Source: an uncultured Candidatus Saccharibacteria bacterium (lineage in GTDB: Bacteria > Patescibacteriota > Doudnabacteria > UBA920). Taken from it: a stretch of 49,757 bases of DNA. Positions within the stretch are counted from its first letter, which is position 1; each line of letters opens with the position of its first letter. Location: positions 67,531 through 117,287 of the forward strand of contig CAYVOF010000001.1 of NCBI GenBank assembly GCA_964453405.1. Direction: 5' to 3'. The notes under the pieces are model-generated. The model was not told where the DNA came from. It made no database searches and worked only from the letters and a program-made list of their open reading frames with translations. The translations under genes were made by a program, and so were the position numbers. This document shows, in pieces, positions 2,105-42,734 of this stretch.

Positions 2105-3799
2105 ATGAAGACACTTTACTTAAATTTAGAAGACGACGTAACCAGAATTATTACCAAAATCAAAGCCCAGCGCGGTGAAACCGAGCTGGTTTTAGTGATT
2201 CCAAAAGGGGCTCAACTTTTAGCCGATAGCATTAATTTGCGTCTACTTAAAAAGCAGGTTGATATGCTTGGCTCTAAACGCGCTAAGGTGTCGATTTTAA
2301 CTATGGATGAAACTGGTCAAGTTTTTGCCAAAGAAGCTGGTTTTGCGTTAAAGCGGTTGCCAAAAATTTCACGAAGTAATTCTATTTCGGATATTCGTCC
2401 TAGTAACCGATCTACTGAAATTGAAGATGCAGTAGAAGCAACTCCCGTTGTCGCTGCAGCTTCTGTTAAAACTTTTGCAAAGCCTGTTTCTAGCAAACCT
2501 CAGCCGCGTGTTCACATTGCGTCAAATACCTCAAATAGAAAATCTCGCATCGAAAATAACGATTGGCTAACACCAACCGCTGTTGAACTACCAGCTCGTT
2601 CAAAAAAAACTAAGGACAACATGTTCATGCCTCCTAATAATAAGAGCACTAAGCCACCTCAGCAAAAGTCGTATAAAAAAGTGGCATTGGTTTTTGTTGC
2701 TTTAGCTCTAATTGTGGTAGCGGCTTTGGTGATTATTGTTTTACCAAGTGCGAATGTTACCATTTATGCTCGATCGCAAACTGTGGCGCGTGATTTAGAT
2801 TTAGTGATTGATGCTAATCAAGATTCGGTTAATGCCAGTAATTTAACTTTACCAGCAACTAAAGTTGACGAAACTAAACAGCTATCGGATTCATTTACCG
2901 TCAACGGAAAAAAAGAAGTTGGCAGTAAAGCACAGGGTCGCATCGTAATTTACAATTTAACTGGCAGTCCAATGAACTTGCGCGCATCTACGACGGTGCT
3001 TACAGTAGGGACCAAAACCTATTATTTTGTATCAGACATAAATGGAATTAATGCATTAGAAAGTCCGAGTAAAGACAGTAATGCTACTACAGCTGATATC
3101 GTAGCTGCCGATGGGGGAGAAGATTTTAATTTGCCAGCTGGTACCCGCGTCGAGATTACTAACCAATCATTTGGTAGTCAGCCGCAACGATTGTATGCTA
3201 AAACCGTAACGCAGGTGATTGGAGGTTCGTCACGATTTGTTTCGGTGGTTAGCAAAGAAGATATTGATGCCGCACAGAAAACTTTAATTAAAAAAGCTGT
3301 GGATGATGTGAATAGTAATTTATCCGATGGGCGTAAATTGGTTGATGGCGCTTATAATATAGAACTTACAAATTTTACCCCAGACAAAGCCGAAGGTATC
3401 GAAGGTACAGTATTTAACGCTTCGGCCACAATTAAGATCACCGGCTTAGCGTTTAATGAGAATGATTTAAAGGGCATGGTTCGGGGCCGTCTTACTCAGA
3501 CATTGGGTACTGATAAGAGTTTACAGGAACAAGAGCAGGACACTGTGGTTTATAAAATTAAAAATTTAGACTTAGCTAGTGGTGTGATGCAACTTTCGAT
3601 TCATTATGAAAGTCAGGCTAAACCCACTATTGATAAAGTTGGTTTAACTAGTCAACTGGCAGGGAAGTCTAAAGAGCAGGCTAATGATATTTTGCTAACC
3701 AATCCAAATATTGAACGGGTTAATATTAAGTTAGCTCCAACTTGGCAAAAATCTTTTCCAAGGATCACAGGAAAAGTGCATATTGAAGTTGTGGAGTAG
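2105..3799 (+). CDS. hypothetical membrane-anchored protein (single TM about aa 200, large extracytoplasmic C-terminal part)
   Basis: Long ORF. I prefer the ATG at 2105 (MKTLYLNLEDD) because the track start at 2057 overlaps the pgi terminator hairpin. Hydrophobic stretch VALVFVALALIVVAALVIIVL. No family recognised. Confidence 0.6.
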   Translation: MKTLYLNLEDDVTRIITKIKAQRGETELVLVIPKGAQLLADSINLRLLKKQVDMLGSKRAKVSILTMDETGQVFAKEAGFALKRLPKISRSNSISDIRPSNRSTEIEDAVEATPVVAAASVKTFAKPVSSKPQPRVHIASNTSNRKSRIENNDWLTPTAVELPARSKKTKDNMFMPPNNKSTKPPQQKSYKKVALVFVALALIVVAALVIIVLPSANVTIYARSQTVARDLDLVIDANQDSVNASNLTLPATKVDETKQLSDSFTVNGKKEVGSKAQGRIVIYNLTGSPMNLRASTTVLTVGTKTYYFVSDINGINALESPSKDSNATTADIVAADGGEDFNLPAGTRVEITNQSFGSQPQRLYAKTVTQVIGGSSRFVSVVSKEDIDAAQKTLIKKAVDDVNSNLSDGRKLVDGAYNIELTNFTPDKAEGIEGTVFNASATIKITGLAFNENDLKGMVRGRLTQTLGTDKSLQEQEQDTVVYKIKNLDLASGVMQLSIHYESQAKPTIDKVGLTSQLAGKSKEQANDILLTNPNIERVNIKLAPTWQKSFPRITGKVHIEVVE

Positions 3800-7815: not shown

Positions 7816-8160
7816 ATGAGACACCAGAAAAAGAAAAAATTTGGAAGAGGTATGGACCACCGCCGCAAACTCTTGCGCGCGTTGGCTTCTTCAGCAATTC
7901 TGTATGAAAGAATTGAAACTAGCTACTCATATGCTCGAGCGGTTAAGCCTTACTTAGAAAAGTTGATCACTAAAGCTAAAGAACCTACATTACATAATCG
8001 TCGTCTACTATTATCTAAACTTTCTAAGAATGCGACCGCAAAAGCTTTGGAAGTTTACGGACCTCGTTACAGCGCTCGCAATGGTGGATACTTACGTTTA
8101 ACTAAATTGAATAATCCTAAAGCTGGCTTGTCTAAAGCAGTGATAGAATTCGTCGCCTAA
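7816..8160 (+). CDS. rplQ: 50S ribosomal protein L17
   Basis: MRHQKKKKFGRGMDHRRKLLRALASS... and its position after rpoA. Confidence 0.9.
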   Translation: MRHQKKKKFGRGMDHRRKLLRALASSAILYERIETSYSYARAVKPYLEKLITKAKEPTLHNRRLLLSKLSKNATAKALEVYGPRYSARNGGYLRLTKLNNPKAGLSKAVIEFVA

Positions 8161-8184
8161 TTCCAGATAAAATACTAGAAATAT

Positions 8185-8616
8185 ATGTTAAAGAATCAAA
8201 AAATTTCACTTCCAAAAGTAAGCGAAGTAACTCGTACTTGGTACGAAATCGACGCTAGCGGCCAACCAATGGGTCGAGTTGCAACTAAAATTGCTAACTT
8301 GATTCGCGGTAAGCATAAACGCAACTTTACTCCTCACATGGATATGGGTGACTTTGTCGTGGCAGTGAATGTTGATAAGTTAAAGTTTACTGGCCGTAAG
8401 ATTGATCAGAAAAAGTATTACTCTCACTCTGGTTACTTGGGTGGTTTAAAGACTAAGACTTTAAAAGATGAAAATGTCCGTAATCCAGAAAAAGTTTTAC
8501 AGCGCGCAGTGTTCTCGATGATTGATGATATTAAGTTTCGTAAAAAGTTAGTATCCCGCCTAAAGTTAGTAAAAGGCGACAAGCACACCTATAAGATTGA
8601 TAAAGAGATTAAATAA
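8185..8616 (+). CDS. rplM: 50S ribosomal protein L13
   Basis: TRTWYEIDASGQPMGRVATKIANLIRGKHK...TPHMDMGDFVVAVN. Confidence 0.95.
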   Translation: MLKNQKISLPKVSEVTRTWYEIDASGQPMGRVATKIANLIRGKHKRNFTPHMDMGDFVVAVNVDKLKFTGRKIDQKKYYSHSGYLGGLKTKTLKDENVRNPEKVLQRAVFSMIDDIKFRKKLVSRLKLVKGDKHTYKIDKEIK

Positions 8617-9403: not shown

Positions 9404-12400
9404 ATGAACAAAGGGTCTGTTTCGCCGGCTCAAGCTCGGTATCGTATAAGGTTCAAAACTTATACTGTTCGCGATTCCGCACCACAGTCAGCCTTTCGTT
9501 TTAACCGTCAATGGTTAGGCAAAGGTTTGGCTTTTGTTGCGGTTTTTTCTTTACTATTTAGTAGTGTTGCCCCAAGTGTGGTTGTAGCAGCGGATGAGGA
9601 GGAGACTCCTGTAGTGGCTGTTGATGCAGTTGCGCCTTCCGAAAATTTGCCAGTAGAAATAATCAAAGTTTGGCAAGATGCTCAAGGTAATCCCATCCCA
9701 GCTTCACAAGTATCGAACAAGGGTGATTTAACTATCACTGCTAAAAATCATGACACTAATCCTGTTGGTCCTTTGGTGACTTGTACTTATTCTGGAGATA
9801 CACTTGGCTGTGATCAGTCTTTAACTATTCAACATGATGGTTATGAAATAGATGTAACCGAACCAACACTACCATCTGGGTGGGTAGTTTTTAGTGGTGT
9901 GGGTGTGGATCAAACTCCGATTTGTACTCAAACTGAAGTTGTTACTTGTACTCACACCGTTATAAACAGACAAGTGCCTGTTAATCCTGTCCCAACAATC
10001 GTCCATATCAATAAAGTTTGGCAAGACTCTAACGGTAATGTAATTCCGGCACCTGATAACAAGACTGACATTAAAATCACTGTAACTTATGGTGAAGCTG
10101 ATCATTCTGTTTGTACTTATGATGACGATACTCTAGTTTGTAACAATACAATTTACAGCCAAACTGGCGGGACAATCAACGTTGTAGAGACTGGTTTACC
10201 AACAGGTTGGGTAGTAGATGGGGACACAGTGGGTGTGGTTACTCCAGTATGTCCAATTGTTGAAGTTGATGCCAATGTCACAGATGGACAGAATTACTTA
10301 AATTGTACTGCAACTGTAATTAATAAATTAAAGACTCCGGCACCGTGTAATACACAATTAGTTGCTAACGGTGGTTTTGAAGTGCCTACAGTTATCACTA
10401 ACCAACAGTGGGATGTTTATCCATCTGGTACTCCAAACTTAGCGTGGAGTGCAAAGTGGGTTCGTACTGGTGGAAGTGAACCAGCGATTGCTAATGTTGA
10501 ATTGCATCGTGGTGTATCTGGATGGAATGCTCATGGTGGTCAACAGCACACTGAGTTAGATTCTGATTGGGGTGGCCCTAGTAGTGGTCAAAGTGGTGAA
10601 GACGCTTCAATCCAATTATTCCAAGATCTACCTACAGTTACTGGTCATAAATATATTGTGAGTTTTTGGACTTCTCCTCGTCCAGGACAGGGAACTGGTA
10701 ACAATGTTACTAAAGTAGAAATGGGCGGCACTGAATTAGAGACTATTACCGAAGACGGCACCGCTAACTCCAACACTGATTGGACTCAACACACTTATAC
10801 TTTTACAGCCAACTCTAGTTTGAGCCGTCTTTCATTCACTGACATGGGTGCCGGGGACAGTCTTGGTGGTTTCTTAGATGACGTTAGCGTTAAAGAACAA
10901 TGTGCTTCTGACGTTACAATTTGTAAATATGATGATGGTCAAACTCCGCTTCCGGGTTGGGATGTATTCTTAAAAGGTGAAAAAGTTGATACTGTAACAG
11001 TTAATCCTGATGGTAGTGATTACATGAGCGTTAATCTACCAGCTGGTGACTATCAATTAGTAGCAAGCGGTAAGTATGTTTACCGACCAGGTGATCCTGA
11101 TGCATCAGAATCTGACGCAGCATATTCCAAGCGGTTGCCAAGTGATTCTGTATACGGTGGACCATTTGCTCCTTGGGTTCGTGAATTAGATTTCCCAACT
11201 CCTTATACAGGGTTCTTGGGTATTGATGTTGACCATACTACTAGCTTTGATTGGGGAAGCACCTTTAACCCTCTACATGAATATTCTGGAGCTAAGAACA
11301 TGGCTTCTTCTGGACAAATGTCCTTCCGAATTTTAGATGACAACTATTCTGATAACTCTGGTCACTTAACTGTAGATATTTACCCAATTTATAAAGGTAC
11401 TACTGGTCGCAATGGTTGTGAAACAATGACTGTTCCTTTGGGCGATTATACTCTTGGTGAAATAATGCAAGACGGTTGGGAAAATGTCTTGGGTGATGGC
11501 AGTGAAGTAGTAATAAATGAATCTGAAGAAAATCTTACTTTAGTTAACAAGTGTATTTCTGAAGAATGTTCTCAGCTAGTTCCAAAACTTCACTTAATCA
11601 AAGTAGTTTGTGACCAATTCAGTGATGTTGCTGGAAACGAAAATGCTGATGAATTTGATAACACTCCAGACAGCAACTACACTCAGTTCTATAATTACGA
11701 TGATGGTGAATTTGATCTAAGCTATCTAATGGATGGTTACGTAACTCCTAATGAAATTCCAGGCAAAGAAAGTAACTGTTATCAGGCCAATGACTGGCAG
11801 TTTAAGTTAAGTACTGACCAAGGTCAGGAAAATAATGTTCAGACTGTAACTACAACTGACGGTGAATATGTAACTCCAATTTCTGGCTCAGGCTCAGATT
11901 TATCTAGCGAATTACAGCAAGGTATTCGTGGTCAAAACGATAACTCATTCTGGGTAAGCGAAGTAGAGCAGGAAGGTTATGATTTTGCTACAATTCGTTG
12001 TAACAACGATGTACTTTACGGTGATAATCTAGAATACATTAATATCGGTGATAGTAACCCAACTGATATTTACTGTATCGCTTACAACATCACTAAAGTT
12101 GAACCTTGCCGAACTCAGGACCCAGCAATTGCTAGCGGTACCGTTACTAAATTTGAAGGTTTAACTGAAACCGATCCTCTTACTACTTTGGGCTTAGACA
12201 ATCCTGCTTCTTATCCAAACGGTACAGCGGGTAATGCTGTAGCAGCAGGTCCAACCGGCTTCCCTGGTGCGTGGGATGGTCCGCAAAATGACTCTAACAT
12301 TACCGAAGGTAGCGCGTTTTGGGTCAGTAATGACTCTGTGCAGCCAACCAACCCACCTGGTCCAAATCCAGGACAGAACGGCTCGGTAGATACATGGCGC

Positions 12401-13372
12401 TTATATACTCATACCTTTACTATTCCAGCAGGAGCCACTTCACTTTCACCAGCAGTATTGTACTTCTCGGCTGATAATGAAGTTACAGCGTTCTTGGATG
12501 GCACTCAAGTTGGCTTTAACAATAGCTTTGCAGTTACAGCAACTAGTCCATTAGCACTTACAACTGGTACTCATACTCTTGCCTTTGCAGTTAAGAACTG
12601 GGCTTTTGAACCAGAAAATAATCCAACTGGCTTGATCTATAATCTAGACTTTACTTATTGCGGTGAACCAACTGGCCAGGGCGGAGATCTCTACTCTATA
12701 AGCGGTAAAGTTTATCACGACAATAATTCTCAAAATGGTACTTTAGACCCAGAAGCAGAAGACGGTCTAGCTACATGGACAGTTTATATTGACGGTAACA
12801 ACAACAATGCGCTTGATGGCGAAGAAATGAGTATAGAATCTGATAGTAATGGTAATTATTCTTTTAATAACTTACTAGCTGGTTGTTATACAATCCGCGA
12901 AATTGTTAAAGAAGGTTGGACTCAAACTGAACCAACCGCAGTCGATGACTTTGAGTACATGGTATCTGTTGGTGGAGTTTCCTGTTCACCAGATACATTA
13001 CTTCAAAAAGTAAAAGACTTCTTTATCCCTACAGCAGGCGCTGCTATTATCAACCCTGACAATATGAACTTTGGTAACATCGAAGCTGATATCGGTGGTT
13101 GTACCAGTAATTGTGGCGGCGGTGGAGGCGGCGGTTCTAATGGCGGCGGTGGTGGAGATGGAACAGTTCCACAAACTCCTCCAGGTCGAGTATTAGGTGA
13201 TGATACAACAATCCCTAGTGATCCAGTACCTCAGGTATTAGGTGCAGTTACAGAACTTCCTCGCACTGGTATGCCTATGCTAAGCTTGGTCTTGATGTTT
13301 GCGGCTACTTTAGGAATCCTCTTGGTTCCTGCAGCTGTTCAATTCAAAAAAGCTAAGCAACTCAATCCTTAA
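9404..13372 (+). CDS. large LPXTG-anchored cell-surface protein (tandem Cna-B/SpaA-like modules, DUF642/CBM-like module, SdrD-B-like module, Gly linker, LPRTG sorting signal)
   Basis: Two tandem modules begin KVWQDAQGNPIP and KVWQDSNGNVIP. LVANGGFEVP... resembles a DUF642-like jelly roll. GKVYHDNNSQNGTLDPEAEDGL...SDSNGNYSFNNL resembles an SdrD B repeat. The C-terminus is LPRTG plus a hydrophobic helix plus KKAK. Confidence 0.85.
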   Translation: MNKGSVSPAQARYRIRFKTYTVRDSAPQSAFRFNRQWLGKGLAFVAVFSLLFSSVAPSVVVAADEEETPVVAVDAVAPSENLPVEIIKVWQDAQGNPIPASQVSNKGDLTITAKNHDTNPVGPLVTCTYSGDTLGCDQSLTIQHDGYEIDVTEPTLPSGWVVFSGVGVDQTPICTQTEVVTCTHTVINRQVPVNPVPTIVHINKVWQDSNGNVIPAPDNKTDIKITVTYGEADHSVCTYDDDTLVCNNTIYSQTGGTINVVETGLPTGWVVDGDTVGVVTPVCPIVEVDANVTDGQNYLNCTATVINKLKTPAPCNTQLVANGGFEVPTVITNQQWDVYPSGTPNLAWSAKWVRTGGSEPAIANVELHRGVSGWNAHGGQQHTELDSDWGGPSSGQSGEDASIQLFQDLPTVTGHKYIVSFWTSPRPGQGTGNNVTKVEMGGTELETITEDGTANSNTDWTQHTYTFTANSSLSRLSFTDMGAGDSLGGFLDDVSVKEQCASDVTICKYDDGQTPLPGWDVFLKGEKVDTVTVNPDGSDYMSVNLPAGDYQLVASGKYVYRPGDPDASESDAAYSKRLPSDSVYGGPFAPWVRELDFPTPYTGFLGIDVDHTTSFDWGSTFNPLHEYSGAKNMASSGQMSFRILDDNYSDNSGHLTVDIYPIYKGTTGRNGCETMTVPLGDYTLGEIMQDGWENVLGDGSEVVINESEENLTLVNKCISEECSQLVPKLHLIKVVCDQFSDVAGNENADEFDNTPDSNYTQFYNYDDGEFDLSYLMDGYVTPNEIPGKESNCYQANDWQFKLSTDQGQENNVQTVTTTDGEYVTPISGSGSDLSSELQQGIRGQNDNSFWVSEVEQEGYDFATIRCNNDVLYGDNLEYINIGDSNPTDIYCIAYNITKVEPCRTQDPAIASGTVTKFEGLTETDPLTTLGLDNPASYPNGTAGNAVAAGPTGFPGAWDGPQNDSNITEGSAFWVSNDSVQPTNPPGPNPGQNGSVDTWRLYTHTFTIPAGATSLSPAVLYFSADNEVTAFLDGTQVGFNNSFAVTATSPLALTTGTHTLAFAVKNWAFEPENNPTGLIYNLDFTYCGEPTGQGGDLYSISGKVYHDNNSQNGTLDPEAEDGLATWTVYIDGNNNNALDGEEMSIESDSNGNYSFNNLLAGCYTIREIVKEGWTQTEPTAVDDFEYMVSVGGVSCSPDTLLQKVKDFFIPTAGAAIINPDNMNFGNIEADIGGCTSNCGGGGGGGSNGGGGGDGTVPQTPPGRVLGDDTTIPSDPVPQVLGAVTELPRTGMPMLSLVLMFAATLGILLVPAAVQFKKAKQLNP

Positions 13373-13385
13373 AAGTGATATAATA

Positions 13386-13421
13386 AAACTACCCATTGGC
13401 TCAAGCTGGCGGGTAGTTTTT
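13386..13421 (+). terminator. hairpin plus T-run after the surface-protein gene
   Basis: AAACTACCC / GGGTAGTTT stem with a 16-nt loop and trailing Ts. Confidence 0.5.
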
Positions 13422-13444
13422 GGTTATTATTAGCTCTAAATTAT

Positions 13445-14062
13445 ATGACGCCTCAGGTGTATAAAATGTTTAAATATGTGATTATCCTCGCTATTATCAT
13501 TGTGGTCGGATTTGTACTGCTTAATTTTGATTATTTTGTTAAGCAAGTCCGTTATTTTATGAGCGAGACTTTTGTGACAGACATACAGCGTCAAAATCTT
13601 CGCGATGAACATCCAATTACTGTTGAGCCAGATCAATTAATTATTCCTTCTTTATTAGATACAGTCGCACCTATTAAGTATGTTAGTGAAACTAATGAAG
13701 CAGCTTATCAAACGGCTTTAAAAGAAGGAGTGGTTCATTTTCCTGGTACTGCTGATGTGGGACAGGAAGGGAATGTATATATTTTTGGGCATTCATCGGA
13801 TTATGCTCTTTCTGACGGAAAGTACAAGACTATTTTTGCATTATTACCAAAAATAGAAATTGGCGCCGAGATTTTAATATCTGATCATGATGGACGACAG
13901 TATAAATATATTGTTTATGACAAATTTGTTGCGGAAAAGAATCAGGTGGAGTTGTTATCTCAAGAAACTGGTCAACACAAAATTTTAACCGTACAAACAT
14001 CGTATCCAATTGGCACTGCTCTAAAAAGATTTATTGTGAAGGCTGAACTGGAAGACAACTAA
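13445..14062 (+). CDS. sortase-family protein lacking the catalytic cysteine (Ser at the TLxTC position)
   Basis: N-terminal TM helix. The sortase His motif is GNVYIFGHSS. The TLxTC-equivalent reads LTVQTS (codon TCG). The Arg motif is KRFIVKA. The protein has no Cys anywhere. Confidence 0.8.
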   Translation: MTPQVYKMFKYVIILAIIIVVGFVLLNFDYFVKQVRYFMSETFVTDIQRQNLRDEHPITVEPDQLIIPSLLDTVAPIKYVSETNEAAYQTALKEGVVHFPGTADVGQEGNVYIFGHSSDYALSDGKYKTIFALLPKIEIGAEILISDHDGRQYKYIVYDKFVAEKNQVELLSQETGQHKILTVQTSYPIGTALKRFIVKAELEDN

Positions 14063-23119: not shown

Positions 23120-24556
23120 TTAATCCCTTCCTCTGAATACTGGTCTTTTTGAAACCAGCATTCCAGGCAAGGATCTAAATGGCATATTATTAGTTTGCTG
23201 GGTCACTAACTCAGCTAACTCATCAATGCTCATTTGCTTCTGACTCTCTCCTCTAACTCTAACAGATAAATGGCCACCAGCCATCTCTTTGTCACCGCAC
23301 ACTACTATGTATGGAACCCATTCGCGCTCAGCTGCTCTTATCCTCCAGTTGAGTGATTCATTGCGCTCATCTACATCTACTCTGATTTTATGTGACTTGA
23401 ATTGTTCAGCCACATTCAATGCAAAGTCGACATGTTTTGCTTCTGAAACTGGAATGACTCGAACTTGAGTCGGGGATAACCATAATGGTAAGGTCGGCGG
23501 ATCCTTTTTGAGGGCATTCTCCAGAATAGAAAATATCCATCTCTCAATTGATCCAATTGAGCTGTGCACAATAGTACAGCCTTTTTGTTTACCATCCGGG
23601 TCCATGAAGGTGATCCCATAGAGTGAAGCATCTTTAATATCCAGTTGGACAGTCGAAGTTTGGCAAATCCCATCTCCGGTGTCTATGGTATTAATTTCAT
23701 GTTTCAGCACCCAGTAATGCTTCATCTCTGAGAGTATTTCGATGAAGGCAGGGGCCCCGCTATGCTTGATCATCTCCACCAATTCGTCCTTGTGCTCATC
23801 GTAAAACTCTTTTACGACTCGAAAAGCTACAGCATAACTGACATCCATACCATTTGCTAATTCGGTATAGCGTCGGTATAGCTCCTTGTATTCTTCGATA
23901 CCCTGATCAAGATTTTGGCAAAAGCTGTGGATGTCAGGCATCCAAAACCCTCGCAGCCTTCTTAACCCTGATAAGCTTCCACTTGATTCATAGCGGAAGC
24001 TTGGCGCGAATTCATACAAGCGAACCGGCAAATGTCTGTAGGTTAATTGGGCATCTCGCATTAAACGAAATAAACCAAAGTCTCCAGCAAACCTTAAGAT
24101 AAATTCCTTTTCAGGTTTATCCGGCAAGCGGACAATATAATGATGCTCGTGGAACGACTCGGCTTGGCTACGGATATCAGGTTCGCCCCAATCGTAAAGG
24201 ATCGGGGTTTCAATTGAGTACGCTCCAAGTCTTTCTAGGGCAATTTCCTCAGCCCACAGGCGTAGCAGTTCAAAAATCAATGCCCCTTTAGGATAAAAGC
24301 GAAAGTGGCCTTTATCACTAGCTGGTTCATAGTCAACTAGCTCCAACTCCTGCATCGCTCTTATAGAAAGTGGTTCGATACCGGGCTGACCCTTAATCAT
24401 TTCCACTTCCACCATTTTACGCAAGTTCGGATAGTCATCCAAAATTTCCAAATTTTCTAAATCTGGGTTAATTTCGAATTCCTTTCCGTCTTGATCCAGA
24501 ATAATAAATCTGGAATCTATATTGTCGACAATTTTCTTTCTCTCTGTCTGATTCAT
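23120..24556 (-). CDS. threonyl-tRNA synthetase-like class II aaRS, catalytic plus anticodon-binding domains only (no TGS or editing domains)
   Basis: Motif 2 FRYESSGSLSGLRRLRGFWMPDIHSFC and motif 3 GSIERWIF. ThrRS-type junction LPLWLSPTQVRVIPV. HGTP anticodon domain (IRVDVDERNESLNWRIRAAEREWVPYIVVCGDKE). Strong SD GGAGGAAAT. Confidence 0.8.
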   Translation of the reverse strand: MNQTERKKIVDNIDSRFIILDQDGKEFEINPDLENLEILDDYPNLRKMVEVEMIKGQPGIEPLSIRAMQELELVDYEPASDKGHFRFYPKGALIFELLRLWAEEIALERLGAYSIETPILYDWGEPDIRSQAESFHEHHYIVRLPDKPEKEFILRFAGDFGLFRLMRDAQLTYRHLPVRLYEFAPSFRYESSGSLSGLRRLRGFWMPDIHSFCQNLDQGIEEYKELYRRYTELANGMDVSYAVAFRVVKEFYDEHKDELVEMIKHSGAPAFIEILSEMKHYWVLKHEINTIDTGDGICQTSTVQLDIKDASLYGITFMDPDGKQKGCTIVHSSIGSIERWIFSILENALKKDPPTLPLWLSPTQVRVIPVSEAKHVDFALNVAEQFKSHKIRVDVDERNESLNWRIRAAEREWVPYIVVCGDKEMAGGHLSVRVRGESQKQMSIDELAELVTQQTNNMPFRSLPGMLVSKRPVFRGRD

Positions 24557-24576
24557 ATTTCCTCCACTAACTATGT

Positions 24577-25989
24577 TTAATCCCTACCTTTAAACACTGG
24601 TCTTTTTGAAACCAACATTCCAGGTAACGGTCTGAATGGCATATGTTGTGTTTGTTGCCTAATTAATTCTTTTAATTCTGCAACTATCATATGTCTTTGA
24701 TTTTCTCCTCTGACTCGAACTGCTAGATAATTATCGCTTATCTCTTTGTCCCCACATACAACCGTATAAGGGACCCATTCGCGTTCCGCAGCTCTTATTC
24801 TCCAGTTGAGTGATTCACTTCGATCATCTACATCCACTCTTATCTGATTGGATTTGAGTTGTTCAGCAACATTCAGTGAGAAGTCTAGATGCTTTTCCTG
24901 CGAAACGGGAATAATTCTAACCTGAGTCGGGGATAGCCATAATGGCAAAGTCGGCGATTCTTTTTTTAAAGCATCATCAACTGCTATGATCATCCACTTT
25001 TCAATGGAACCAAAAGATGTATGAATAACAACACATTCATTTTTATCACCATCATTTGTCATGTATTTAATCCCAAACTTTTTACCACTTTCAATATCGA
25101 ATTGAACATGGAATAAAGTTTGAGGATGTTCTGAGTATGAAATATGTTTCATTGACCAGTATTGGCGTTGACTTGAAATAATTTCAACCAACATTTTTTC
25201 TCCACTGGCCAGCATTTCGATCATGACATTCTTCATTGATTTATACAGATTTTCTGTAATTTTGAAGTGTATTACTAAATTTACTCCAACATCATTTGCC
25301 ATTTTGGTCAGAAGTCTTTGTATCTCCTGATATTCAATTAATGCTTCCTCCATGTTTGAACAGAAGCTATGAATATCAGTAAACGAAAATGATCTTCCTC
25401 TTCTAATTCCAGAAAGAGCCCCACTTTGATGATATCGAAAGCTATGTGTGTGTTCGTAGATTCTGAAAGGTAGATGTCGATATGTAAGCTGCGCACCTTT
25501 CATTATCTCGAACAAACCCAAGTCGTCATTAAAGCGGAGTACAAATTTTTCTTTGTTTTGTTCGCTTCCAAAAACTGGGTAAACACTATTGCTAAACATT
25601 CCTATCTGTTTATTAATATTTGAGTGATCCCAGTCGTAGATAAATGGTGTTTTTAATGGTAATGCTTCAAATGCTTCAGTAGCTATTTGTTCGCACCATC
25701 GGGTGAGTAGCTCATACATTAATGCCCCTTTGGGATAAAAACGAAAGTGTCCTTTATCACTGGCTGGTTCATAGTCAACTAACTCGAGTTTTTGCATCGT
25801 GTCCATCTGACTAGAAAATTGAACCGTACTAATTGCATCAACATTTGCGGTGATCACTTTGATCATTGCTGGGCTAAATTGATTTTCAATTTCGCGCCAG
25901 CTATCTTTTTGTAACGATATTTCATTACCCAAAGAATCGAGTGTAAAAAAACTGCTTGCTGGCAAGTTTTTGTTCTGATCTGTTTCCAT
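24577..25989 (-). CDS. ThrRS-like paralog with degenerate class II catalytic motifs
   Basis: Same architecture as the downstream copy. Long runs are identical to it (ELVDYEPASDKGHFRFYPKGAL, TLPLWLSPTQVR, SLNWRIRAAEREWVPY, LPGMLVSKRPVF). Motif 2 reads FRYHQSG...RRGRSFSFTDIH and motif 3 reads GSIEKWMI. Confidence 0.75.
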   Translation of the reverse strand: METDQNKNLPASSFFTLDSLGNEISLQKDSWREIENQFSPAMIKVITANVDAISTVQFSSQMDTMQKLELVDYEPASDKGHFRFYPKGALMYELLTRWCEQIATEAFEALPLKTPFIYDWDHSNINKQIGMFSNSVYPVFGSEQNKEKFVLRFNDDLGLFEIMKGAQLTYRHLPFRIYEHTHSFRYHQSGALSGIRRGRSFSFTDIHSFCSNMEEALIEYQEIQRLLTKMANDVGVNLVIHFKITENLYKSMKNVMIEMLASGEKMLVEIISSQRQYWSMKHISYSEHPQTLFHVQFDIESGKKFGIKYMTNDGDKNECVVIHTSFGSIEKWMIIAVDDALKKESPTLPLWLSPTQVRIIPVSQEKHLDFSLNVAEQLKSNQIRVDVDDRSESLNWRIRAAEREWVPYTVVCGDKEISDNYLAVRVRGENQRHMIVAELKELIRQQTQHMPFRPLPGMLVSKRPVFKGRD

Positions 25990-39079: not shown

Positions 39080-40144
39080 ATGAACTATTGGTTGAAAAAA
39101 ATTAAAATTGGTTTTTTAAGCCTTATAGTTTTTTTGCAACTGTTTGCGTTTATTTCGCCAGCTCAGGTTTATGCGCAGGCTCTTCCTGATCCAATAAAAA
39201 CTGACACTCAAGCTAAGACTCCTGAGGAGCTTCCAGTTTATAATGCTGGTGTTGATAAAAGTATTCAAGATTATTTATGTACACCGCAAGGTAATGGCAC
39301 AGATTTATTTGACTGTGTAGATCGCTTGTATCGTTTTGGAATATCGGCTGGTGCGATCATGGTAGTGTTCTTTATTGTTTACGCAGGATATATTTATATC
39401 ACCGGTGGGGAAGCGTCTAAGACTAAGGCCAAGCAAACAATCTATTCGGCTCTCACTGGCTTGGCGATTATGTTAGGAAGTTTTGTGTTACTCAACTTTA
39501 TTAATCCGAATTTGACTAAGATTAAACCAATTCAGCCGCCGATTTTTAGTGCTTTAGATTTGCCAAGTTGTGAGGAAATAGGTTTTGCTGAGAAGTGTAT
39601 AATAAGTACAGGTGGGAGTGCAGGGCAGGTTGTTAATCCTAGTACTGGCTCTGGTGGTGCAGGTGCAGGTAGTTGTAAAATTATGAACTCTGGTGCTTGC
39701 GCGGTGCAAAATATGAAATTATGCCCTGATTGGAACCCAGAGGATGCCTCTCGTGTGTGTAATTTGGAGAGTGCTGGTGGTGCGAATTTAACAATTGCTA
39801 GTGGATCAGATAAATGTTCGGACGGAACCTCATTTTCTTATGGCTTGTGGCAGATTAACTTAACTGCTCATCAGGGACAACCATATATGCCAGCTGCATG
39901 CCAGAAGACTTTGTTTAGCGGCAAGAATTTTAGCTGCAAATTGATCGTAAGCAAAGCCGAGCTACAGGCTTGCGTTACGGCATTGGGAGATGTAGCCGCC
40001 CAAACTAAGGTAGCTTGTGGTTTGTATAAGGGTCGCGGAGGAAATTTTAAAGATTGGATATGTTCTGCGTATCGTTGCAAAATCCCCGGTCCGTATTCTG
40101 GAGCAAGTAGCAGTAAGTTTTGTCAAACTTTTCCTCCGAGGTAA
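39080..40144 (+). CDS. T4SS-pilin/TrbC-like membrane module fused to a Cys-rich lysozyme-like (transglycosylase) domain
   Basis: Signal peptide and two TM helices around ITGGEASKTKAK (VirB2/TrbC-like topology). The C-terminal NLESAGG...SFSYGLWQINL resembles the catalytic Glu plus GLxQI motif of lysozyme-like enzymes. Confidence 0.6.
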   Translation: MNYWLKKIKIGFLSLIVFLQLFAFISPAQVYAQALPDPIKTDTQAKTPEELPVYNAGVDKSIQDYLCTPQGNGTDLFDCVDRLYRFGISAGAIMVVFFIVYAGYIYITGGEASKTKAKQTIYSALTGLAIMLGSFVLLNFINPNLTKIKPIQPPIFSALDLPSCEEIGFAEKCIISTGGSAGQVVNPSTGSGGAGAGSCKIMNSGACAVQNMKLCPDWNPEDASRVCNLESAGGANLTIASGSDKCSDGTSFSYGLWQINLTAHQGQPYMPAACQKTLFSGKNFSCKLIVSKAELQACVTALGDVAAQTKVACGLYKGRGGNFKDWICSAYRCKIPGPYSGASSSKFCQTFPPR

Positions 40145-40171
40145 TATTTTGTTAATCAAATTTTATATTTT

Positions 40172-40612
40172 ATGAGTATTGAAAAGAAATTACTAATCGC
40201 TTTAATAGTTACAATAGTTTTGTGTGGTGTAGCTATATTGTTATTTATGCGTTCTAAAAATTCTGATACGGTTTCTGTAACTCCGGATTTAGAGCAAGTT
40301 TTAGAAAGCAAGGCTATTAAATCAGAACAAGACATACTAACCTTTGTTGACACAGGAAAGTACTTCATTACCTACAACAAAGTGAGTAAAGAATTTTTAA
40401 TTGTATTATTACCTTCAGAACAAATTAATCAAGAAATAAATGATCTCCGAACCCAAGCCGAAAGTGAGTTAATGACCATAGTTAGTATGGACAACTTAGC
40501 TATCTGTAGTCTTAAAGTTTCGCTAATTATACCCCCATCATACTGGCCAGAAATGTCCGGGGTTGATTACGGATTAAGTGGTTGTGGTAATTTTATTCCT
40601 TTTAATAAATAA
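40172..40612 (+). CDS. hypothetical membrane-anchored protein (146 aa)
   Basis: ORF with an N-terminal TM helix. No family recognised. Confidence 0.5.
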   Translation: MSIEKKLLIALIVTIVLCGVAILLFMRSKNSDTVSVTPDLEQVLESKAIKSEQDILTFVDTGKYFITYNKVSKEFLIVLLPSEQINQEINDLRTQAESELMTIVSMDNLAICSLKVSLIIPPSYWPEMSGVDYGLSGCGNFIPFNK

Positions 40613-40613
40613 G

Positions 40614-41333
40614 ATGAATAACGAAGAACATAAAAATAATGTATCGCCCCGCAATCCCATGCCTATTATTATTACCATTATAATAGCCGCGTGGTTAGTT
40701 GGGATCAGTGTGTTGGGTGCTGGATGGTTGATTGCAAAAGAAATTTCTAAGCAGAGCACCAATGATTCCAGTGATATAACTAAAACAAATGAACCAATTA
40801 ATATAGAGATACCAAGGTATAAGTCCCAACAGGGGAGTGATGACGCCAAGGTCACTGTAATTGAATTTGCAGATTTTCAATGTCCGTTCTGCGGGGAGTG
40901 GCAAAAAACTATTTATCCTAAATTGAAAAGTGATTATATAGATACAGGTAAAGTTAAGTTTGTATATTGGGATTTAGCCTTTTTAGGTGATGAATCAATA
41001 AAAGCTGCCGAAGCGGCTATTTGTGCCAAGGACCAAGATAAGTTTTGGGAATTTCATGATCGTTTATTTGCCGGACAATATGGGGAAAATCAAGGTGCTT
41101 TTAGTGACGTAAATTTAAAAAAAATAGCCGCAGAATTAGGTTTAGAAACCAAAATTTTTAATAAATGTTTTGACGAAGGTCTCTATAAATCATTAGTCGA
41201 AGATTCAAACAATATGGCTCAAACTTACGGTGTTAATTCTACACCAACTGTATTTGTCAACGGTTTAAAGTTTGAGGGTGTGATGCCGTTTGAGAATTTA
41301 AAACAAGTAATAGACTCTGCTCTTGCAAAATAA
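40614..41333 (+). CDS. DsbA-like thiol:disulfide oxidoreductase (membrane anchored)
   Basis: TM helix and a thioredoxin fold with FQCPFCGEW (CxxC). ATG at 40614 preferred over the track start at 40578. Confidence 0.85.
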   Translation: MNNEEHKNNVSPRNPMPIIITIIIAAWLVGISVLGAGWLIAKEISKQSTNDSSDITKTNEPINIEIPRYKSQQGSDDAKVTVIEFADFQCPFCGEWQKTIYPKLKSDYIDTGKVKFVYWDLAFLGDESIKAAEAAICAKDQDKFWEFHDRLFAGQYGENQGAFSDVNLKKIAAELGLETKIFNKCFDEGLYKSLVEDSNNMAQTYGVNSTPTVFVNGLKFEGVMPFENLKQVIDSALAK

Positions 41334-42366
41334 ACTATCTAAATTAATAGTTACTATTGGGCTGGTTGTGTTAGCTGTGAATCCGATTTTTGTGTATGCG
41401 CAAAATCCACCTAAGACAACTACCACAGTTGTCAAAGAACCAAACACCTCAACTACGGAGGAACTTCCAGTTTATAACGCTGGCGTAGACCGCAGCATTC
41501 AAGATTATTTGTGTACACCAAGCGAGCCCGCTGATGGTCATGACCTAGAACGCTGTGTGAATCGCTTGTTCAGGTTTACGGTTACTGCAGGCGCATTGAT
41601 TGTATTGTTTATGGTGGTCTTTGCAGGATACATGTATATCACGGGTGGCGAGCAAGCCAAAACTAAAGCAAAAGGTTATCTTCAAAATTCTCTGACAGGC
41701 ATGGCGATATTATTAGGTAGCTACCTATTGCTGTACTTTATAAACCCGACACTCACGCAGTTTAAACCAATTCAGCCACCGATTTTTGATGCAGCAGATT
41801 TACCAAGTTGTGAAGAAATCGGGTTTTCTAAAAGTTGTGTAATTCAAGCTGGTGAGGATGTTCCTGGAAATTCACCAGTTGTAGTTGTAGCAGGTGGAAG
41901 TAGCGGTGGTACAGCAGTTGCCTGTACAACTGGAATGTCTACACTTTCTGAGTACGGGGTGCCAACAAAAGATGGCCGAAGCTTGCCAATTTGTAAGTCT
42001 TTGGGCCCAAAGGTTAAGGCAGCATATGAGGCATCAAAAATCGAAAAATGGCGAGCTACAGCTACTGTTGATCCTGGTCATTCTAGTAGATGTCATAAAC
42101 CTGTAAACCCAGAAAATGGTAACTGTGTTGATATTGGAACAGGTGATGGTGATAGAAGCACAGCTCGTTGGGATAAAATATGCGCAGCGTTTAAACAACA
42201 AGGCGGTGTTTCTATAGCTAATGAAATTGCGCCAAAGTCAGCAAGTGGTTCTGCTCTTGCCGCTTATGCAACACCCAATTGTGGTCCTGCAAAGGACAAG
42301 TCTACAAAGGTGTATCAATTTGCTAGTGATGCACCATCAATACATGTTAATTACACAGGTCGTTAA
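41323..42366 (+). CDS. paralog of 39080..40144: same pilin-like membrane module, different C-terminal domain (possibly a LAS/M15-like metallopeptidase)
   Basis: The N-terminal module shares EELPVYNAGVD.SIQDYLCTP, ITGGE..KTKAK and KPIQPPIF...DLPSCEEIGF with the paralog. The C-terminal HSSRCHKPVNPENGNCVDIG ... SIHVNY is only loosely H...D...H-like. TTG start overlaps the dsbA-like stop. Confidence 0.55.
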   Translation: MQNKLSKLIVTIGLVVLAVNPIFVYAQNPPKTTTTVVKEPNTSTTEELPVYNAGVDRSIQDYLCTPSEPADGHDLERCVNRLFRFTVTAGALIVLFMVVFAGYMYITGGEQAKTKAKGYLQNSLTGMAILLGSYLLLYFINPTLTQFKPIQPPIFDAADLPSCEEIGFSKSCVIQAGEDVPGNSPVVVVAGGSSGGTAVACTTGMSTLSEYGVPTKDGRSLPICKSLGPKVKAAYEASKIEKWRATATVDPGHSSRCHKPVNPENGNCVDIGTGDGDRSTARWDKICAAFKQQGGVSIANEIAPKSASGSALAAYATPNCGPAKDKSTKVYQFASDAPSIHVNYTGR

Positions 42367-42476
42367 AGTGGAGTTTAATCTACATTGTCACATGTAGCAT
42401 TGTGGATAAACTCGTTGCTAATTTCAGATAAAAGCTATATCATATAATTGAATAACAATTAAAATATAATAACAAA

Positions 42477-42734
42477 ATGAAGCAAAAAATGGTTCTTTAT
42501 GGCATAGGTATATTTATCGTTGGGCTTTTAGTAGGTGGTCTGTACGTGGATAGGTTTGGGTCACCAATTCACTTAAAAGGCCAGAACTCTTCGGCAAATG
42601 TACAATACACATGTGCTCAACTACTTTGGTATATTGATCACACATCTGGTCCTGCCCAACATTCTTGGACAACTATTTACAATTCTCAATGTAGTCATGA
42701 TGTGTTTCCGGTATCACCAAGCATATCCGAATAA
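42477..42734 (+). CDS. small hypothetical membrane protein (85 aa)
   Basis: ORF with an N-terminal TM helix. A TATAAT box (42465-42470) lies 6 nt upstream of the ATG, and a strong terminator follows. Confidence 0.45.
   Translation: MKQKMVLYGIGIFIVGLLVGGLYVDRFGSPIHLKGQNSSANVQYTCAQLLWYIDHTSGPAQHSWTTIYNSQCSHDVFPVSPSISE

Follow-up and report, generated by a model that had tools for sequence, protein, structure and literature searches.

By definition, sortases are cysteine transpeptidases; both their classification (MEROPS C60) and the inhibitors aimed at them treat them as such, and a type II membrane anchor is their usual layout. In class GN and SrtB-type systems, one sortase is encoded next to one cognate target. 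Here, we describe a sortase-like gene in which a serine stands at the position of the catalytic cysteine. The gene occupies positions 13445..14062 of a 49,757-nt stretch of DNA (the whole of which is referred to as the window) from an uncultured bacterium of the Doudnabacteria lineage (candidate phyla radiation [CPR]/Patescibacteria; contig CAYVOF010000001.1), and it directly follows a gene for a large surface protein that ends in an LPRTG sorting signal. The serine is shared by all of the close relatives examined, and the gene pair recurs in most of the related genomes whose loci were compared. The protein is a conserved variant, apparently undescribed, of a well-known enzyme family; full-text literature searches found no description of natural serine sortases or of CPR sortase biochemistry. 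Judging from sequence comparisons, we put the probability that it is an active His/Ser/Arg sortase, dedicated to the neighboring LPRTG substrate and acting via an ester acyl-enzyme, at roughly 60%.

A sortase homolog with serine at the nucleophile position

What kind of protein does the gene encode? By sequence and by predicted fold, the product belongs to the sortase superfamily, as a preliminary description of this DNA had proposed. The relevant features are as follows.

13445..14062, + strand: serine-type sortase gene, 205 amino acids (aa) from the ATG at 13445; likelier start at the ATG at 13466 (Met8)
13466..13534, + strand: N-terminal membrane anchor, a hydrophobic stretch (MFKYVIILAIIIVVGFVLLNF; residues ~8-30)
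13790..13792, + strand: His116 codon (CAT), within GNVYIFGHSS; equivalent of the catalytic histidine
13799..13801, + strand: Asp119 codon (GAT); residue characteristic of the serine clade, three positions past His116
13994..14008, + strand: remodeled nucleophile motif Q184-T185-S186-Y187-P188, within L-T-V-Q-T-S; Ser186 is TCG at 14000-14002
14027..14029, + strand: Arg195 codon (AGA), within LKRFIVKA; equivalent of the conserved sortase arginine

The open reading frame (ORF) is intact and encodes no cysteine at all, and the motifs GNVYIFGHSS, LTVQTS and KRFIVKA lie where the preliminary description had placed them. The product matches the Pfam Sortase model (PF04203) with an E-value of 1.7e-19 (70.2 bits against a cut-off of 26.6), and stays below the cut-off of TIGR01076 (sortase_fam; 24.7 versus 39.35). 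Met8 is probably the true start, because its ATG has AGGTG 9 nt upstream and alignments with homologs begin at about residue 7.

An AlphaFold2 model built on 74 homologs has a mean predicted local distance difference test score of 93 and a predicted template modeling score of 0.83. It consists of N-terminal helices (residues 3-26, 28-43 and 46-55) followed by a beta-barrel, in keeping with the eight-stranded fold of sortases. The first helix covers the anchor region, and the likely topology is an N-terminal anchor with an extracytoplasmic catalytic domain. His116 closes the strand 109-115, Ser186 is part of the strand 179-189, and the strand after that (192-202) contains Arg195. Gln184 shares the strand of Ser186, two residues ahead of it, and would therefore face the same side. 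All 50 of the top Foldseek matches in the PDB are sortases (classes C, D, A and E), with target-normalized TM-scores of at most 0.75.

Three comparisons place Ser186 in the column of the catalytic cysteine: a phmmer alignment with Clostridium perfringens SrtD (4d70), in which mTivTC stands opposite lTvqTS; a profile-profile alignment with a cysteine-containing sister clade (probability 100%, E = 3e-61); and a MAFFT alignment of 151 representatives. None of them puts a cysteine elsewhere. The TLxTC cysteine that marks sortases is thus missing, the motif here being T-V-Q-T-S. The codon itself is well supported, since TCG at 14000-14002 is free of variants in Logan contigs from three runs on wastewater and activated sludge that belong to two independent studies (X1 and X2 to one, X5 to the other).

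A large serine clade and its cysteine sister clade

The serine form is a large natural clade: the roughly 300 close relatives that were examined all carry T-L-Q-T-S-Y/W-P. The core Q-T-S-[YW]-P is present in each of the 120 best clusters at 90% identity, down to 46% identity, and 99 of these 120 proteins contain no cysteine whatever. Among the top 151 representatives at 50% identity, 116 have serine, 30 have cysteine and 5 are truncated, with the cysteine forms being the more distant matches (E > 1e-29 in that library). The His116 column is histidine in all 151, and the Arg195 column is arginine in 145, the exceptions being truncated or junk rows. Within the serine clade, position 186 is serine in 116 of 116 representatives; alanine, glycine, threonine and proline were never found. 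A scan of one genome per species returned 165 genomes with a relative, and the serine motif is present in all 80 of the loci that were fetched.

Where do the two forms occur? Titles of serine-form records mostly name Doudnabacteria, with one complete Kazan genome (CP011216.1) and one Yanofskybacteria; many others are metagenome-assembled genomes labeled “Patescibacteria group” or auto-labeled “Saccharibacteria”. Databases call these proteins simply “sortase”. The cysteine sister clade has the motif S/T-L-M-T-C-x-P-V-G-T, and the best 120 of its 678 proteins carry the names Berkelbacteria, Peregrinibacteria, Gracilibacteria and “Patescibacteria group”. In a neighbor-joining tree, the 30 cysteine sequences are monophyletic, and 114 of the 116 serine sequences lie across the midpoint root.

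The codons used for the nucleophile are informative. Over the 80 genomes, the serine codon is TCT in 34, TCG in 17, TCC in 15, TCA in 12, and AGC and AGT in one each. AGY codons thus make up 2.5% (2/80) at this position, versus 38% among all serine codons of the same genes. Because the codons drift synonymously within TCN while the amino acid stays constant, with almost no crossing to AGY, Ser186 itself is under strong purifying selection. In the cysteine clade, the nucleophile codon is TGT in 41 cases and TGC in 39, and the codon pattern fits an origin of the serine by a TGY-to-TCY change. The two AGY users (L036 with AGT and L080 with AGC) have otherwise typical clade sequences; they imply rare crossings between the serine codon families, perhaps by way of a cysteine or threonine intermediate.

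The residues around the nucleophile also differ between the clades. Gln184 is present in 114 of 116 serine-clade representatives and is methionine in the cysteine clade. Position 187 is tyrosine or tryptophan in 115 of 116; the cysteine clade reads Met-Thr-Cys-x-Pro over positions 184-188. Asp119 is found in 108 of 116 serine-clade representatives versus 3 of 30 in the cysteine clade, where tyrosine or asparagine is usual. Pro135 and Ala192 are likewise fixed in the serine clade and different in the cysteine clade. These patterns show that the active site was remodeled in a coordinated fashion with the switch to serine, at Gln184, Tyr/Trp187, Asp119, Pro135 and Ala192. Asp119 could complete a Ser-His-Asp triad. 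A role for Asp119 in recognizing the arginine of the substrate motif was considered and rejected, because the aspartate is present in all seven loci whose motif lacks that arginine.

Other residues vary with the substrate. Residue 123 (13811-13813) is lysine in six of the seven loci with LPVTG, LPKTG or LPGTG substrates, and serine, alanine or asparagine in those with LPRTG; Glu85 and Gln89 are less conserved in the loci with non-Arg substrates. Residues 123, 85 and 89 may be specificity determinants for the X of LPXTG, on the evidence of a small and phylogenetically non-independent sample.

A conserved pair with an LPRTG surface protein

The gene directly upstream encodes the presumptive substrate.

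9404..13372, + strand: gene for a secreted surface protein of 1322 aa that is adhesin-like and has 24 cysteines (ORF with Pfam and NCBIfam domains)
13229..13372, + strand: C-terminal sorting signal P-Q-V-L-G-A-V-T-E-LPRTG (LPRTG at 13256-13270), hydrophobic helix and basic tail KKAKQLNP

The protein combines a choice-of-anchor C/DUF642/CBM-like head with an SdrD-B/SpaA prealbumin-like stalk. Its C-terminus reads ...PQVLGAVTELPRTG-MPMLSLVLMFAATLGILLVPAAVQF-KKAKQLNP, and the stretch that spans the LPRTG is QVLGAVTELPRTGMPM. The ORF extends ~40 residues ahead of the signal-peptide core (GLAFVAVFSLLFSSVAPSVVVA-ADEEE; 9404-9600), and the real start may lie downstream of 9404.

The preliminary description had expected a functional pairing because the upstream gene encodes the sole LPxTG protein in the window. 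The window does hold no other, and the pairing extends well beyond it: in 62 of the 80 serine-clade loci, the gene immediately upstream, in the same orientation, encodes an LPxTG protein, at a median gap of 74 nt. Synteny past the pair is weak (HU in 24 of 80, a response regulator in 22 of 80 and ribosomal protein genes in ~10 of 80), and the pair is therefore the conserved unit. In a logo of 63 substrates, all 63 have the L, the P, the T and the G, and the variable position is R in 56, V in four, K in two and G in one. The signal extends upstream as P-Q-V-L-G-A-x-T-E, with V(-7), L(-6), G(-5) and T(-2) conserved, and downstream as x-P, 20-33 more residues with a hydrophobic helix among them, and a basic tail. 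The passenger regions are highly variable and range from 148 to 1962 aa, and the best match of each substrate to any other has a median identity-times-coverage of ~36%. They combine the SdrD-B/SpaA prealbumin-like stalk with VWA, DUF11, DUF642/choice-of-anchor C or CBM-type heads. Cysteine counts in the LPRTG substrates are mostly even (84%; median 8).

Is the pairing also found in the cysteine clade? The control set comprised 2 long contigs and 80 metagenome loci, with loci counted as evaluable if they had at least 1.5 kb on both sides. A genuine LPxTG neighbor was found in none of the 33 evaluable loci, in an ORF scan that used translation table 11, which could break ORFs in those Gracilibacteria that use genetic code 25.

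One locus (L033) has two tandem serine-type sortase genes (9986-10600 and 11063-11968), both with LTLQTSYP, downstream of a single LPRTG protein. A reading of the serine-clade proteins as pilus polymerases (class C) was ruled out, since the pilin motif [YF]PK[NDQ] is present in none of the 63 substrates and each locus has one substrate gene.

Proposed mechanism

The two genes are best understood as a module with which a CPR/Patescibacteria bacterium displays a protein at its surface. This protein, the product of the upstream gene, would be large, variable and adhesin-like; after export, its PQVLGAxTE-LPRTG signal, transmembrane helix and basic tail would keep it in the membrane. The downstream gene would supply a membrane-anchored enzyme of the sortase fold, with Ser186 in place of cysteine and with His116 and Arg195 kept. 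His116 would act as the general base that activates Ser186, and Ser186 would attack the Thr-Gly bond of LPRTG to form an ester acyl-enzyme, with the oxyanion stabilized by Arg195 and possibly Gln184. Finally, an amine of a peptidoglycan precursor would resolve the acyl-enzyme, leaving the adhesin anchored to the wall.

The protein is almost certainly functional, and Ser186 is probably its working nucleophile, to judge from the patterns of conservation. Serine, histidine and arginine are retained, the coordinated remodeling is fixed, the L, P, T and G of the substrate are invariant and the pairing is conserved; for these reasons, the site is likely still doing chemistry on a recognized signal. 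With a little less assurance, we favor the broader view that the sortases of Doudnabacteria and Kazan-type CPR bacteria are serine sortases, the first to be found in nature. These enzymes would have arisen by a clade-wide nucleophile switch that was compensated by Gln184, Tyr187 and Asp119 and kept activity, and each would handle one hypervariable LPRTG adhesin that these episymbionts display.

Several points weigh against an active, dedicated transpeptidase. First, Asp119 is only 93% conserved in the serine clade. Second, the sortase gene has no transcript contig in the sole metatranscriptome that holds the locus, where only fragments of the substrate gene were recovered, although this is no evidence of absence. 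Third, a cysteine sortase could lie beyond the searched flanks in genomes with the serine form. Fourth, oxy-esters favor aminolysis over hydrolysis less than thio-esters do, which is the basis of subtiligase. Because an oxy-ester partitions more to hydrolysis, transpeptidation is less certain than cleavage. Fifth, the C184S substitution strongly reduces the activity of Staphylococcus aureus SrtA, according to a passage of PMC4827206 that cites its ref. 26; SrtA C184S is also in use as a cysteine-less background (PMC5578623). Since this single substitution cripples SrtA, serine is no drop-in replacement for cysteine, and extra changes would be needed.

The expression of the two genes may be uneven. 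The space between them contains the following element.

13385..13423, + strand: stable intergenic hairpin with a U-run behind it (dG -22.4 kcal/mol, z -4.66; 0 of 200 shuffles as stable)

The hairpin looks like an intrinsic terminator or attenuator. In the metatranscriptome, contigs of a near-identical strain cover parts of the substrate gene, and one of them ends at 13395. Together, hairpin and transcripts weakly fit high expression of the substrate and low expression of the sortase, and the hairpin may be an attenuator through which the substrate is made at a high ratio to the enzyme.

Alternative explanations

The preliminary description had left the choice between a serine-nucleophile enzyme and an inactive pseudo-enzyme. 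Comparative evidence favors the former and weakens the latter. A pseudo-sortase would bind the LPRTG signal of its neighbor as a holdase, retention factor or display regulator, and anchoring would fall to a cysteine sortase encoded elsewhere, or the adhesin would stay in the membrane by its C-terminal helix. The missing canonical nucleophile is compatible with this explanation, as is the strong loss of activity in S. aureus SrtA C184S (the same passage of PMC4827206), and the hairpin and lack of sortase transcript contigs would suit a protein expressed at a low level. However, binding alone needs neither a strict serine nor invariant histidine and arginine, and alanine, glycine and threonine never appear in ~300 sequences. 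The strong bias toward TCN, combined with free synonymous drift, shows selection on the serine itself, and the neighbors of the active site have been remodeled and then fixed rather than relaxed.

A hidden Markov model search of all ORFs covered the 49.7-kb window and 10 kb on either side of the 80 loci (~1.2 Mb of flanks); within that scope, it found no second sortase of any kind, cysteine type included, other than the tandem serine duplicate in L033. The named members of the cysteine sister clade belong to other CPR lineages. In addition, judged by length, the long contigs of the listed serine-clade proteins (e.g., 943,189, 851,616 and 787,846 bp) do not recur among the contigs of the best 120 of the 678 cysteine-clade proteins, which is weak evidence. 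All told, an inert pseudo-sortase seems unlikely.

Alternatively, the protein could be an active serine hydrolase that cuts LPRTG with water as the acceptor, so that the adhesin is released, shed or matured and not covalently anchored to the wall. All of the evidence for activity applies equally to a hydrolase. It is established chemistry that an ester acyl-enzyme has a greater intrinsic tendency than a thio-ester to be hydrolyzed rather than to undergo aminolysis, and the layout of one enzyme and one substrate resembles that of dedicated processing proteases. Yet the substrates resemble wall-anchored Gram-positive adhesins, with an SdrD-B/SpaA stalk beside the signal, and the serine acyl-enzymes of penicillin-binding proteins (PBPs) are known to transpeptidate efficiently. 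The window also encodes the peptidoglycan-related functions YceG/MltG and M23, and an acceptor wall therefore probably exists. A pure hydrolase is a somewhat poorer candidate than a pseudo-sortase, and doubtful.

Finally, a sequencing or assembly error at a cysteine codon, or a lone degenerating pseudogene, can be set aside, as only the prior expectation of cysteine in sortases speaks for it, and it is contradicted by three independent assemblies that read TCG and never TGC or TGT, by the intact ORF and by a serine that is fixed in hundreds of homologs down to ~40% identity.

Functional implications

What would an active serine sortase of this kind mean? First, it would indicate that the sortase fold supports serine-based acyl transfer, in parallel to the dichotomy between PBPs and LD-transpeptidases. 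Second, the second-shell changes that enable the switch would be identified as Gln184, Tyr187 and Asp119, unlike in plain SrtA C184S. Third, it would point to the way in which numerous uncultivated CPR bacteria present their main variable adhesin, a matter of probable importance for attaching to host cells. Fourth, it would constitute a new chemical class of sortases and provide a thiol-free, oxidation-insensitive scaffold for LPRTG ligases. An inactive protein, by contrast, would add a rare example of a pseudo-sortase that has been conserved and is locked to one client protein.

Other features of the window and related loci

A DsbA-like thioredoxin is encoded at 40578-41333 (Pfam Thioredoxin_4, E = 5e-38), amid genes for secreted cysteine-rich proteins (39080-42734). 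Two of these neighbors, of 354 aa with 16 cysteines and 347 aa with 10 cysteines, have no Pfam match. As a speculation, a single catalytic thiol could be a disadvantage if the extracytoplasmic space is oxidizing.

On the - strand at 23120-25989, two tandem paralogs of 478 and 470 aa have near-identical tails (...RPLPGMLVSKRPVF[RK]GRD).

PEP-CTERM-like C-termini, such as ...VPEPATYALVGTVLAGGFIYRRRRG and VPESGTMLMVAGGLAGIVAVRRKG, are encoded 1.4-8.5 kb from the serine sortase gene in several CPR loci. Examples are listed below.

2966-3661 of locus L032: PEP-CTERM-like protein
695-1459 of locus L022: PEP-CTERM-like protein
1160-1894 of locus L041: PEP-CTERM-like protein
7953-8423 of locus L074, - strand: PEP-CTERM-like protein

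Comparison with known systems

How does the serine clade relate to described enzymes? The cysteine-type sortases of CPR bacteria (the STLMTCxPVGT clade, e.g., the sortase of CP011213.1) are homologs, with an hhalign probability of 100%, an E-value of 3e-61 and ~33% identity. They share the N-terminal anchor and the GNxxxxGHSS, PxGT and R motifs with the serine clade. They differ in having cysteine for serine, methionine for Gln184 and mostly tyrosine or asparagine for Asp119, and in lacking an LPxTG neighbor in the 33 evaluable loci.

Among characterized sortases, the best sequence and structure matches are those of classes D and E (C. perfringens SrtD, 4d70; Streptomyces/Thermobifida SrtE, 5go5 and 9m2g). 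These have the same order and spacing of histidine, cysteine position and arginine as the serine clade. The scores against the two class D models are nonetheless below cut-off (42.9 and 41.4 bits versus 140 and 165), and classes C, E, F and GN score lower still. Matches of 74 clade members to the NCBIfam class models are similarly weak, the best E-value being 1.4e-20. The signals also differ, being of the LPxTA/LAxTG type for classes D and E and LPRTG for the serine clade. The class GN “marine” sortase (TIGR03784) and SrtB-type systems follow the same genomic logic as the pair described here, a sortase beside one cognate target, but similarity to class GN is weak (27 bits versus a cut-off of 158), and both class GN and SrtB keep the cysteine. 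Because the scores lie far under every NCBIfam cut-off and the TLxTC cysteine is absent, no described class fits, and it would be wrong to assign the protein to any of them as a cysteine transpeptidase.

Parallels outside the family are of working mode only, since the folds are unrelated and there is no homology. PBPs use a serine acyl-enzyme to transpeptidate to peptidoglycan, alongside the LD-transpeptidases (YkuD), which use cysteine. Rhombosortase is a serine protease that processes GlyGly-CTERM proteins, and so sorting enzymes can be serine based. Within the sortase family, a laboratory product can be compared: SrtA C184S carries the same change of nucleophile, to which the serine clade adds the fixed residues Gln184, Tyr187 and Asp119.

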